IMG/VR virus record: IMGVR_UViG_2711768001_000010
Direction: 5' to 3' (one strand)
DNA length: 4,404 bases
DNA from: a virus
Taxonomy: Duplodnaviria; Heunggongvirae; Uroviricota; Caudoviricetes
This document shows positions 1 to 4,404 of this stretch, in pieces (positions within the stretch are counted from its first letter, which is position 1; each line of letters opens with the position of its first letter). The notes under the pieces were generated by a model that had not been told where the DNA came from, did no database searches, and saw only the letters and a program-made list of their open reading frames with translations. A program made the translations under genes and the position numbers.

Positions 1-160
1 GCTTTGAACTCTTTAGAGTAACGTTGGGTTTTTCTGCTCATTATTAGCTCCTTCTGATGCCATTCTATTTCAGGAAGGAGTGTCCGTTAAACTCAGGCTA
101 CCTCAGGTTATTCGCTTCTGGGCATGGGCGGATCAACAAATGATAGACGGTAATGCAGAT

Positions 161-2527: not shown

Positions 2528-3214
2528 ATGACCCCAATAAACATATTTATGACAGTTGCTGATTTCAAACGGCCCAAATTGGAGCTCCCAAACGGGGCAA
2601 ACAAACTACTACTGCACTCTTGCTGTGCTCCATGTTCCGGTGAGGTGATGGAGGCGCTTCAGGCCTCGGGAATCGACTACACCATCTTTTTCTACAACCC
2701 GAACATTCATCCTCAGAAAGAGTATTTAATTCGTAAGGATGAGAATATTCGCTTTGCTGAACAACACGGCGTGCCGTTTATTGATGCTGATTACGACACA
2801 GACAACTGGTTTGAACGAGCCAAAGGAATGGAATGGGAGCCCGAACGAGGGATCCGTTGCACCATGTGTTTTGACATGCGTTTTGAGCGGACAGCGCTGT
2901 ACGCCGCTGAAAATGGTTTCAGTGTGATCAGCAGTTCACTGGGCATTTCACGCTGGAAAAATATGCAGCAGGTTAACGACTGTGGGCGGCGAGCCGTCGC
3001 GCATTATCCGGGCATGGTGTACTGGGATTATAACTGGCGCAAGCAGGGCGGCTCGTCCCGTATGATTGAAATCAGCAAGCGCGAAAAATTCTATCAGCAG
3101 GAATATTGTGGCTGTGTGTATTCTCTGCGCGATACCAATCTACACCGCAAATCTCAGGGACGCCCTCTTATCAAAATTGGTCAACTCCACTACGGTAAAG
3201 AAGAGAAGGAGTGA
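2528..3214 (+). CDS. queH: QueH-like epoxyqueuosine reductase (DUF208 family), phage-carried tRNA queuosine-modification gene
   Basis: 228-codon ORF with N-terminal [11 protein letters not shown] and further Cys motifs ([17 protein letters not shown]) that match my recollection of the DUF208/QueH signature. No SD before ATG 2528; ATG 2549 is an alternative start. The assignment is from motif memory only. Confidence 0.65.
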
Positions 3215-3235: not shown

Positions 3236-3265
3236 TTGATTTCATATTGGCGAGGTAAGTAGAAT
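3236..3265 (+). promoter_or_regulatory. Sigma70-like promoter candidate (copy a): TTGATT-18-TAGAAT
   Basis: -35 TTGATT at 3236-3241 and -10 TAGAAT at 3260-3265. The same two hexamers, followed by a similar GACT, recur at 3542-3569. Confidence 0.35.
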
Positions 3266-3365
3266 GACTGCGGGTGCTTGAGGCTATCTGCTTCAGGCAT
3301 GAACACCAAAAGGCAGATAGAGAAAAGCCCCAGTTAACATTACGCGTCCGGCAAGACGCTTAACA

Positions 3366-3454
3366 NNNNNNNNNNNNNNNNNNNNNNNNNNNNNNNNNNN
3401 NNNNNNNNNNNNNNNNNNNNNNNNNNNNNNNNNNNNNNNNNNNNNNNNNNNNNN
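3366..3454. other. N-run (89 nt) inside the promoter/terminator-bounded noncoding unit
   Basis: Read directly. Confidence 1.
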
Positions 3455-3476
3455 CATCCTCAACGCACCCGCACTT

Positions 3477-3521
3477 AACCCGCCCATCGCTGTGATCTCT
3501 CAGCGTTTCGGCGGGTTTTTT
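3477..3521 (+). terminator. Rho-independent terminator-like two-tier hairpin followed by T6
   Basis: Outer stem AACCCGCC (3477-3484) pairs with GGCGGGTT (3510-3517). Inner stem CGCTG (3488-3492) pairs with CAGCG (3501-3505) around an 8-nt loop. TTTTTT at 3516-3521. The A-run would precede the stem on the other strand, so it is oriented for + strand transcripts only. Confidence 0.45.
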
Positions 3522-3541
3522 GTTGTTTATTTCCGGTGAAT

Positions 3542-3569
3542 TTGATTCGCGCACCTTCGCAGATAGAAT
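3542..3569 (+). promoter_or_regulatory. Sigma70-like promoter candidate (copy b): TTGATT-16-TAGAAT, upstream of the 3651-4330 cassette
   Basis: -35 TTGATT at 3542-3547 and -10 TAGAAT at 3564-3569, about 20 nt downstream of the terminator-like T-run and about 80 nt upstream of ATG 3651. Confidence 0.4.
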
Positions 3570-3650
3570 CGACTCACTTAAGTAGCGCGCAGGGAGAAGA
3601 GGGATGGACCCCGAACAGGGGAGAGCTATTTATCTGGAAGGATTCTGAAG

Positions 3651-3938
3651 ATGAAAATCGAAGAATTGCGTGAAATTTTTAGTGAAAATGGCCTCTATGC
3701 TGTGCGCGTTGAGAATGGAGCGATTGTCAGCCATTGCCGCATTAGATGTTTGCAATCTCAACAAAGGAAGAGCGGTGCTGTGTTATTTTATTTTTGTAAT
3801 GGACTTCTGACGGACGGTTTTATTTTGCGTGAGGACGAATTTGTCACATCATTACGGGTTTTGAAAGAGATTGGTTTTAAGGCTGGTTTTCTGCTTTTGC
3901 TGAAGAATAAACTCATCTACAATCTTGAGCAGGATTGA
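3651..3938 (+). CDS. Hypothetical protein, first gene of an apparently AT-rich cassette
   Basis: 95-codon ORF with ATG at 3651, 8 nt after GGAAGGA (3636-3642). Appears noticeably more AT-rich than the upstream genes by eye (not counted). Preceded by a promoter-like element (3542-3569) that follows a terminator-like hairpin. No recognisable motif. Confidence 0.5.
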   Translation: MKIEELREIFSENGLYAVRVENGAIVSHCRIRCLQSQQRKSGAVLFYFCNGLLTDGFILREDEFVTSLRVLKEIGFKAGFLLLLKNKLIYNLEQD

Positions 3939-3976
3939 ACTCCTGCTGTGTAACACCGTGCCACCGGAGAAAGCCG

Positions 3977-4330
3977 ATGGCACATATACAACTGGTCAAA
4001 CAAACCTCTTCCGGATTACTTCTCCCGGCGACGCCGGAGAGTTGCGATTTTCTGCATCAAATCAAAATAGGTGAGTGGATACACGCAGACTTTAAGCGTG
4101 TGTGTAACTACGCATTCCACAAGCGTTTTTTCAAACTCCTGCAACTGGGTTTCGATTACTGGACTCCGGTCGGTGGGGCGATCACGCCTCGCGAACGAAA
4201 ACTGGTGTCCGGTTTCGTTGATTACCTGTGTGAATCAGTAGGCCGGGAACATACGCCAGCTCTGAGCGAAGCCGCAGAGCAATTGAGGTGTACTGGCAAT
4301 AGCGGACACTACCATTTGTTCTTTTTTTAA
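3977..4330 (+). CDS. Hypothetical protein; may be truncated at a T7 tract (4322-4328)
   Basis: ATG at 3977 is preceded by GGAGAAAG (3964-3971). The ORF track start at TTG 3935 is less likely. The ORF ends HLFFF-TAA right after the T7 run, while frame 1 is open from 4303 to the window end. Family not recognised with confidence. Confidence 0.5.
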   Translation: MAHIQLVKQTSSGLLLPATPESCDFLHQIKIGEWIHADFKRVCNYAFHKRFFKLLQLGFDYWTPVGGAITPRERKLVSGFVDYLCESVGREHTPALSEAAEQLRCTGNSGHYHLFFF

Positions 4331-4404
4331 GCAGCCATCTGATGATATTTTTCCCTGAAGGCTGCCGGGGAGATATTCCCCAGACGAGAGTGACGACGCT
4401 GACG

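Follow-up and report, generated by a model that had tools for sequence, protein, structure and literature searches.

A probable Rem-type antirepressor module in a decayed Rac/Qin-type prophage bracketed by IS600

Introduction

The Rem protein (b1561) of the Qin prophage of Escherichia coli K-12 has been concluded to be an antirepressor of DicA: expression of rem led to a 165-fold rise in expression from the DicA-repressed promoter dicBp and to a filamentation that depends on DicB/DicF, and the inducing signal was stated to be unknown (Ragunathan et al., J Bacteriol 2023, PMC10448788). In Salmonella, Gifsy-1 and Gifsy-2 have an operon in which dinI is followed by an antirepressor gene (gfoA or gftA) and by irsA, and STM2620 is the irsA homologue of the same study (Lemire et al. 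2011, PMC3121763). Here we analyse two small genes, at 3651-3938 and 3977-4330 of a 4404-base stretch of viral DNA (IMG/VR record IMGVR_UViG_2711768001_000010; the whole stretch is hereafter called the window). They very probably form the antirepressor module of a decayed lambdoid prophage of the Rac/Qin type with DicA-like immunity, lying between two copies of the insertion sequence (IS) IS600.

An earlier note on this DNA had read the two genes as a moron, i.e., as a horizontally acquired cassette with its own promoter behind a terminator, and had added that such loci often have functions in superinfection exclusion, defence or toxicity. Classical morons, such as bor and lom of lambda and gene 15 of HK97, are units of promoter, gene and terminator that lie between genes adjacent in related phages. 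The window resembles them in having a promoter directly after a terminator and one gene with a lower content of guanine and cytosine (GC) than its neighbours, but it is not an insert when compared with related phages, lacks a terminator at its end, and carries the orthologue of a phage-regulatory gene. It occupies the same slot in more than half of the complete E. coli genomes, unlike the variable presence of a moron. The usual label of both genes is 'hypothetical protein', and the earlier note took them for a moron; this likely mis-annotation is corrected here. The locus as such matters little, as a decayed copy of a described prophage module; it illustrates that the anatomy of a promoter after a terminator can mark the induction switch of a prophage rather than cargo.

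Results and discussion

The two genes belong to families of described prophage modules

The open reading frames (ORFs) exist where the earlier note had placed them, both on the plus strand and each behind a Shine-Dalgarno (SD) sequence. The ATG of gene 1 at 3651 is preceded at 8 nucleotides (nt) by an SD-like GGAAGGA (3636-3642), and that of gene 2 at 3977 is preceded at 6 nt by GGAGA (3966-3970). Profile searches on both proteins gave Rem (phrog_340) for gene 1 and DUF1367 (PF07105) for gene 2. The product of gene 1, of 95 amino acids (aa), is 68% identical to Rem of K-12 Qin (E 2e-34) and 64% identical to the protein annotated 'rem, prophage antirepressor' in Rac 442/2; it matches phrog_340 (E 6e-20), which is the PHROG of K-12 Rem, and contains the complete invariant core of the family (GLYAV.VENG ... 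GF.LR..EFVTSL..LKE.G.KAGF). By this homology gene 1 (3651-3938) is a rem gene, homologous to that of the Qin antirepressor and present here as a 95-aa allele.

The Rem family is abundant yet phylogenetically narrow. We found rem DNA in 3042 of 5426 complete E. coli genomes, and a search of 1.84 billion representative proteins with the Rem profile returned only 56 matches and no link to a characterised family; the distant relatives have the core GF.LR.DEFVTSL in common. Gene 1 had no match in the local Pfam and NCBIfam collections; its family PF27490 appears as a precomputed label alone, and no literature mentioning PF27490 was found.

Gene 2 corresponds over its first 102 codons (3977-4282) to the N-terminal part of a DUF1367/IrsA protein that has 199 aa at full length: residues 1-103 align with profile positions 1-102 of the 198 in PF07105, at 159.7 bits against a cut-off of 25. 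The protein is 53% identical to STM2620 of Gifsy-1, and its family, phrog_319, carries the PHROGs annotation NinB/Orf recombination mediator. DUF1367 does occupy the equivalent place to lambda ninB, the first conserved nin gene, after the replication genes, and phrog_72 (lambda NinB) and phrog_319 have one function label, but they are different PHROGs and different Pfam families. Comparison of DUF1367 with lambda NinB/Orf (PDB 1PC6) by hhalign was negative, as were phmmer and profile searches against PDB sequences. The AlphaFold model of DUF1367 has a predicted local distance difference test (pLDDT) score of 63.

The arrangement recurs in related prophages and phages

The window fragment is 99.9% identical to an intact prophage of E. 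coli FDAARGOS_944 (hereafter L001), whose context is of the Rac/Qin type. The order of genes in L001 is: dicA-like repressor, cro-like gene, ydaT, ydaU, ydaV, DUF977, a hypothetical gene, QueH, hokD, rem, DUF1367, DUF1364, DUF1133 (Q-like), transfer RNA (tRNA) genes and lysis genes. Its DicA-like repressor (WP_000787424.1) has 135 aa and is 62% identical to DicA of K-12, from which it follows that repressor and antirepressor have diverged together.

Among the described systems, Qin of K-12 is close in several respects. Its Rem is 68% identical over the core, belongs to the same PHROG and is encoded in the same slot, directly after hokD, with the terminator, the TAGAAT promoter and the leader in common with the window. 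It differs in length (83 aa in Qin, 95 aa in the window, which has a 4-residue insertion, QSQQ, and a frameshifted tail), in the -35 element and spacer (TTGAAG and 18 nt in Qin, TTGATT and 16 nt in the window) and in the gene downstream (YdfU/DUF968 in Qin, DUF1367 in the window); the window also has no adjacent repressor gene. In Rac 442/2 (MN652886) and Rac-SA53 (KU052037, annotated as hok, rem, irsA, ybcO, q), the order hok - rem - irsA - ybcO - q and the gene families are identical, and the DNA of Rac 442/2 is 82.5% identical to the window across rem and irsA. Relative to these Rac-type phages, the window has irsA cut by IS600, with ybcO and q displaced, and Rac-SA53 itself carries a short, 58-aa variant of rem.

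Gifsy-1 offers a parallel in position. Its order is dinI - gfoA (STM2621.1n, 73 aa) - STM2620 (DUF1367) - ninG - Q, so that in both cases a small antirepressor gene stands immediately 5' of DUF1367/IrsA, between the replication genes and Q. The repressors of the two systems are of the same short, non-cleavable type, with 30% identity. The Gifsy operon is controlled by LexA and begins with dinI, whereas the window has hok upstream and neither dinI nor a LexA box (no CTG-N10-CAG within 3455-3650).

The slot itself is conserved. A hok gene lies at most 450 nt upstream of rem in 107 of 129 loci, and in 15 others it is farther away, separated from rem by inserted genes; this is the result at the very position where the earlier note had proposed to look for variability of the cassette. 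Of 98 loci, 78 have a small hypothetical gene and DUF968/YdfU downstream of rem, and 15 have DUF1367 there, in most cases together with DUF1364 and DUF1133. All the related prophages and phages examined thus have hok, then rem, then the DUF1367 or the DUF968 module, and then Q, including the functional phage mEp460_ev081, which has the same arrangement. What varies at this place is not rem but the nin-type module behind it, which takes two alternative forms.

A possible mode of action

We propose that the terminator of hok (3479-3528) shields the unit from transcription that arrives from upstream. A messenger RNA (mRNA) with a leader of 75 nt would begin near 3576, driven by the TAGAAT promoter, Rem would be translated from the GGAAGGA SD, and transcription would run on through the gap of 38 nt into DUF1367/IrsA, with which rem would be co-transcribed. 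No terminator was found in this gap, after rem or within gene 2 (a hairpin at 3928-3947 has no U-tract and z = -1.3). That the unit is independently transcribed, behind a terminator and from a conserved promoter, is therefore plausible. In intact relatives the transcript would continue to DUF1364 and to the Q-like antiterminator DUF1133. By homology to K-12 Rem, the product would inactivate a DicA-type repressor and so switch on the early operons of the prophage. This would account for the moron-like anatomy, because the inducer of a repressed prophage needs transcription that is independent of the repressed operons. The gene families, the synteny, the conservation of promoter and terminator, the IS insertion and the frameshift are observed, whereas the activity of the 95-aa allele, the start of transcription and the co-transcription of the two genes are inferred.

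Several observations weigh against an antirepressor module. No gene of a DicA-type repressor and no immunity region were found in the window, the antirepressor function is carried over from one orthologue at 68% identity, and the conserved acidic C-terminus of the family, SAFxEE, is lost in the 95-aa allele. The AlphaFold2 model of Rem is poor (pLDDT 64, predicted template modelling (TM) score, pTM, 0.39), and a Foldseek search with it against the PDB gave nothing below E 0.15, with MTH1 at TM 0.34. Taken as a single site, the promoter scores at chance (2 sites against 1.2 +/- 1.0 expected in 1.3 kb), and we found no literature on the transcription start of rem or on its inducing condition. 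Finally, Rem and GfoA belong to different PHROGs and have no detectable sequence similarity (hhalign probability 0.3%), because of which the Gifsy parallel is one of position only.

The module is decayed

A deletion of 1 nt in the T5 run at 3887-3890 of rem causes a -1 frameshift: near the 3' end of the gene the relatives all read GGTTTTTCT and the window reads GGTTTTCT. The canonical ending ...KAGFSAFAEE* of an 86-aa protein (P0003) is exchanged for ...KAGFLLLLKNKLIYNLEQD* and the protein extended to 95 aa. From 3887-3890 onwards, on the plus strand, the allele thus has the C-terminal tail ...GFLLLLKNKLIYNLEQD instead of ...GFSAFAEE, with SAFAEE* becoming LLLLKNKLIYNLEQD*.

Gene 2 is a pseudogene cut by IS600, not a frameshifted gene. 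It can be aligned with the full-length gene of L001 (199 aa) only as far as 4283, the point at which IS600 starts (insertion at 4283/4284), and its apparent stop (4328-4330) lies inside the IS. L009 and L010, two loci of the Shigella flexneri type, carry this IS at the identical position, with the remainder of DUF1367 on its far side. The frame-corrected extension past 4330 that had been envisaged does not exist, since everything from 4284 onward is IS600. Codon 43 of the fragment (4103-4105) also carries a change, R43C (KRVRNY to KRVCNY), at an arginine kept in at least 90% of the homologues; this is consistent with relaxed selection after the insertion.

It is possible, if doubtful, that the module is an inert relic, a dead Rem with a dead DUF1367 that persists only between IS600 copies in a Shigella-type genome shedding its prophage functions. 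Such an end would fit the frameshift that removes the acidic tail, the cut and mutated DUF1367, the frameshifted and truncated ydaU-like gene at the other side of the fragment, and the immunity region missing from the window. However, the frameshift starts only past the conserved core (...DEFVTSLxxLKExGxKAGF), and the distant members of the family have quite different tails. The 95-aa allele is also widespread, among others in Shigella sonnei-type genomes, with a cluster of 82 member sequences on about 1000 contigs, and the promoter, leader and SD of the window are intact and identical to those of L001. The exact protein has been recorded mainly from Shigella sonnei, and a K-12-type rem (P0044/P0045) has a tail that is frameshifted in a similar way. 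With its conserved core untouched, the 95-aa Rem may have kept its activity.

Even as an antirepressor module, the pair is at best an orphan in the genome of the window: no repressor lies next to it, DUF1367 is broken and the tail of Rem is altered. Because the cognate repressor region is not adjacent, DUF1367 is destroyed and the Rem tail is frameshifted, any remaining activity of Rem would be exerted only in trans, on the DicA-type repressors of other prophages. In Shigella-type genomes, such an effect of an orphan rem whose promoter is intact would still be possible; crosstalk of this kind is known for the Gifsy antirepressors.

A conserved putative promoter and a conserved leader precede rem

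The promoter-like element at 3542-3569 that the earlier note had pointed out is present on the plus strand and consists of a -35 TTGATT (3542-3547), a spacer of 16 nt and a -10 TAGAAT (3564-3569), with a predicted transcription start near A3576. At chance level by itself, it is supported by comparison. We used 140 loci with the conserved leader, drawn from E. coli genomes, phage records, species-representative genomes and IMG/VR contigs, 138 of which extended far enough upstream. Of these 138, 137 have TAGAAT as the -10, and 135 have a TTGAnn -35 at a distance of 16 or 18 nt before it. Since the sequences upstream of the -10 form several unrelated classes, yet both elements are kept, we regard the putative sigma-70-type promoter of rem as probably real. 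The pair of terminator and promoter also stays directly 5' of rem where genes have been inserted after hok (L006 and L008), and the DNA homology to distant rem loci begins exactly at 3576, the predicted start.

It is improbable that this promoter goes unused and that rem and DUF1367 are read only from a long early rightward transcript passing through the hok terminator. The two genes do lie between the replication genes and Q, where the nin genes of lambda are read from pR, and both the single-site score and the missing literature on the start would agree with such a transcript. But conservation of the -10 and of its distance to TTGAnn across unrelated upstream sequences is unexpected of neutral sequence, homology among distant loci starts exactly at the predicted start, and an antirepressor made only after derepression could not trigger induction.

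A DicA operator in the rem promoter was considered and rejected: there are no 7-mers in common with the dicA-cro intergenic region of L001, and in K-12 there are A/T runs only.

Between the predicted start and the ATG of rem lies a conserved leader of 75 nt (3576-3650, plus strand), with a GC hairpin, an upstream ATG at 3604 and the SD of rem. Its 5' half reads ACTTAAGTAGCGCGCAGGGAGAAGAGGGATGG, and it carries a ACTTAAGTAGCGCGC box. The hairpin has a GC stem of 4-5 base pairs (bp), made of CCCC (3609-3612) and GGGG (3618-3621) around the loop GAACA; among variants the stem is kept, its fourth pair alternating between C-G and U-A, and the loop is free to vary. The upstream ATG is near-invariant and has an SD-like GGGAG. 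Conservation of the leader exceeds that of the coding sequence of rem: in one locus (L016) the leader is nearly unchanged although Rem is only 51% identical. The observation spans the window and the loci L003, L016 and L024-L143.

Three more specific roles for the leader were discarded. A conserved leader peptide starting at 3604 was rejected, the upstream ORF having 3-16 codons or being fused to rem depending on the variant. A long-range fold hiding the SD (RNAalifold) was rejected as well, the minimum-energy folds differing among variants and the short hairpin alone being consistent. A boxB/nut-like hairpin was dropped, with a loop sequence that varies freely and no apparent boxA-like sequence.

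The 5' half of the leader and the GC hairpin also precede two further classes of small ORFs. One, of 57/58 aa, stands behind the promoter and leader in L008, L017, L026, about 20 other loci and L145, and has only its first approximately 23 residues in common with Rem. The other, of 55 aa and unrelated in appearance, begins with MNDKELIA (MNDKELIAALSVPG...) and is joined right after the hairpin in L053, L045, L068, L106 and L126. Both classes may be alternative antirepressor specificities.

The leader is a candidate control element for the synthesis of the antirepressor. We put forward, tentatively, that the unit of promoter and leader is the sensory input by which DicA-type prophages time the production of their antirepressor, because it is better conserved than the coding sequence, is kept before three classes of ORFs, and lacks the LexA box of Gifsy. 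For the signal that induces Rem, the leader is the one lead worth following, and promoter and leader together (3542-3650) are the obvious place to seek it; a cis-acting RNA or an operator in this unit, if true, would make the question testable.

Base composition and gene content do not indicate acquired cargo

In the earlier note both genes looked rich in A and T. This is so for rem, at 39.6% GC, and not for gene 2, whose 50.8% is close to the 49.7% of the rest of the prophage fragment. The ten rem homologues that we measured have 38-42% GC within prophage regions of 43-51%; the low GC is thus a trait of the family and no mark of recent arrival, because it is common to all of them.

A horizontally acquired moron that serves the host through superinfection exclusion, defence or a toxin is accordingly very unlikely. 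A terminator and then a promoter do precede the genes, the GC of rem is 10 points below that of the DNA around it, and the gap between hok and rem takes real cargo in relatives (a doc-type pair in L006, two genes in L008). But both families are fixed at the slot in related prophages and functional phages, the compositional difference is left for rem only and is general in its family, gene 2 has ordinary GC, and no terminator closes the unit downstream. The outcome that the earlier note had said would refute its reading has thus largely come about. As for the functions suggested for it, the K-12 orthologue is a prophage antirepressor, and a search of the defence models of PADLOC-DB with Rem, full-length DUF1367 and the truncated ORF returned no family at E <= 0.01. 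The locus represents a module that has been described before, here decayed but in its ordinary arrangement, rather than acquired cargo.

The upstream hairpin terminates a hok/sok locus

The terminator-like hairpin before the two genes is real, and it belongs to the 3' end of the hok mRNA, outside the two-gene cassette. It is an intrinsic terminator (3479-3528, plus strand) in which CCCGCC (3479-3484) pairs with GGCGGG (3510-3515), followed by the T-run TTTTTTGTTGTTT; its fold has -25.1 kcal/mol (z = -4.8 against shuffles), and a simple terminator scan missed it because of its long loop. Its assignment to hok rests on three observations. A hok promoter (TTGATT-18-TAGAAT, 3236-3265) puts the start of transcription at 3272, the exact start of the Rfam sok match (3272-3331); the 5' end of that mRNA, GGGUGC (3272-3277), is complementary to GCACCC (3464-3469), just upstream of the terminator; and in L001, which has no masked bases here, the distance from start to terminator is about 450 nt. 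Pairing between the 5' and 3' ends is usual in hok mRNAs.

With the unmasked bases of the window, the sok covariance model (RF01794) reaches 53.9 bits; in L001, where the full model is matched, it reaches 117 bits. The 5' part of the locus is at 3236-3331 on the plus strand, the hok ORF itself falls in a masked run of N (3366-3454), and hokD is annotated in L001; positions 3236-3528 are a complete type I toxin-antitoxin locus of the hok/sok type. The mask of 89 N at 3366-3454 stands for about 285 nt in L001 (5716-6000, hok ORF included), and since the two lengths differ, the coordinates of the window are not colinear with the real genome across it.

That Rem is an antitoxin or accessory factor of this hok/sok locus (or of relBE) is hardly credible: rem does lie immediately 3' of hok in most loci and one phage record calls it an antitoxin, but the control of hok is exerted by the antisense RNA sok, itself found in the window, rem stays behind its own terminator and promoter even where genes have come to lie between it and hok, and the experimental phenotype of Rem acts through DicA and dicBF. 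The record in question is that of phage PhiR42_1 (L021, 3998-4249), which names the protein 'Antitoxin Rem'; the label was probably guessed from the position by hok and relBE, and conflicts with the experimental role of an antirepressor.

The terminator is kept in relatives in the form CCCGC-TTCG-GCGGG followed by a T run, relative to which the loop in the window has an insertion of roughly 23 nt. The genes found between hok and the terminator-promoter pair of rem are a doc-type toxin-antitoxin pair in L006 (1723-2340) and a hypothetical gene with a helix-turn-helix gene in L008 (685-2419), and each of these inserts closes with a fresh copy of the CCCGCTTCGGCGGG terminator.

The window is a prophage fragment between two copies of IS600

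The window is a fragment of a lambdoid prophage bracketed by two copies of IS600 in the same, direct orientation. The end of the first copy (1-105, minus strand) comprises the terminal repeat and the start of orfA (MSRKTQRYSKEFK), with an ATG at 41-39. It matches the far end of the IS of 1265 bp in L009 (8695-9959) with 100% identity, truncates a ydaU-like replication gene at 105/106 and separates the fragment from the immunity region of the prophage. The end of the second copy (4284-4404, minus strand) encodes the C-terminus of the transposase, ...FREKYHQMAA*. The two IS600 ends of the window match the two ends of the one element in L009, and plasmid records label this 1265-bp element 'IS3-like element IS600 family transposase'.

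Between the copies lie the ydaU-like gene, a DnaC/ydaV-like gene that is partly masked, DUF977, an ORF with a zinc ribbon, QueH, hok/sok, gene 1 and gene 2; no tRNA genes were found in the window. A second mask, of 306 N (1222-1527), corresponds to about 312 nt. The ydaU-like gene (80-782) is a pseudogene, truncated at its 5' end and frameshifted, so that it lies in at least two frames (ORFs 80-343 and 513-782); a stretch rich in GAGGAA repeats is found near 415-435.

The epoxyqueuosine reductase gene QueH (2528-3214; Pfam, 220.6 bits) is prophage cargo between the replication genes and hok. Its slot holds quite different cargo in other relatives, e.g., a Paa adhesin, an ORF6N protein or a P-loop ATPase, and it is in this slot that the real moron-like variability is located.

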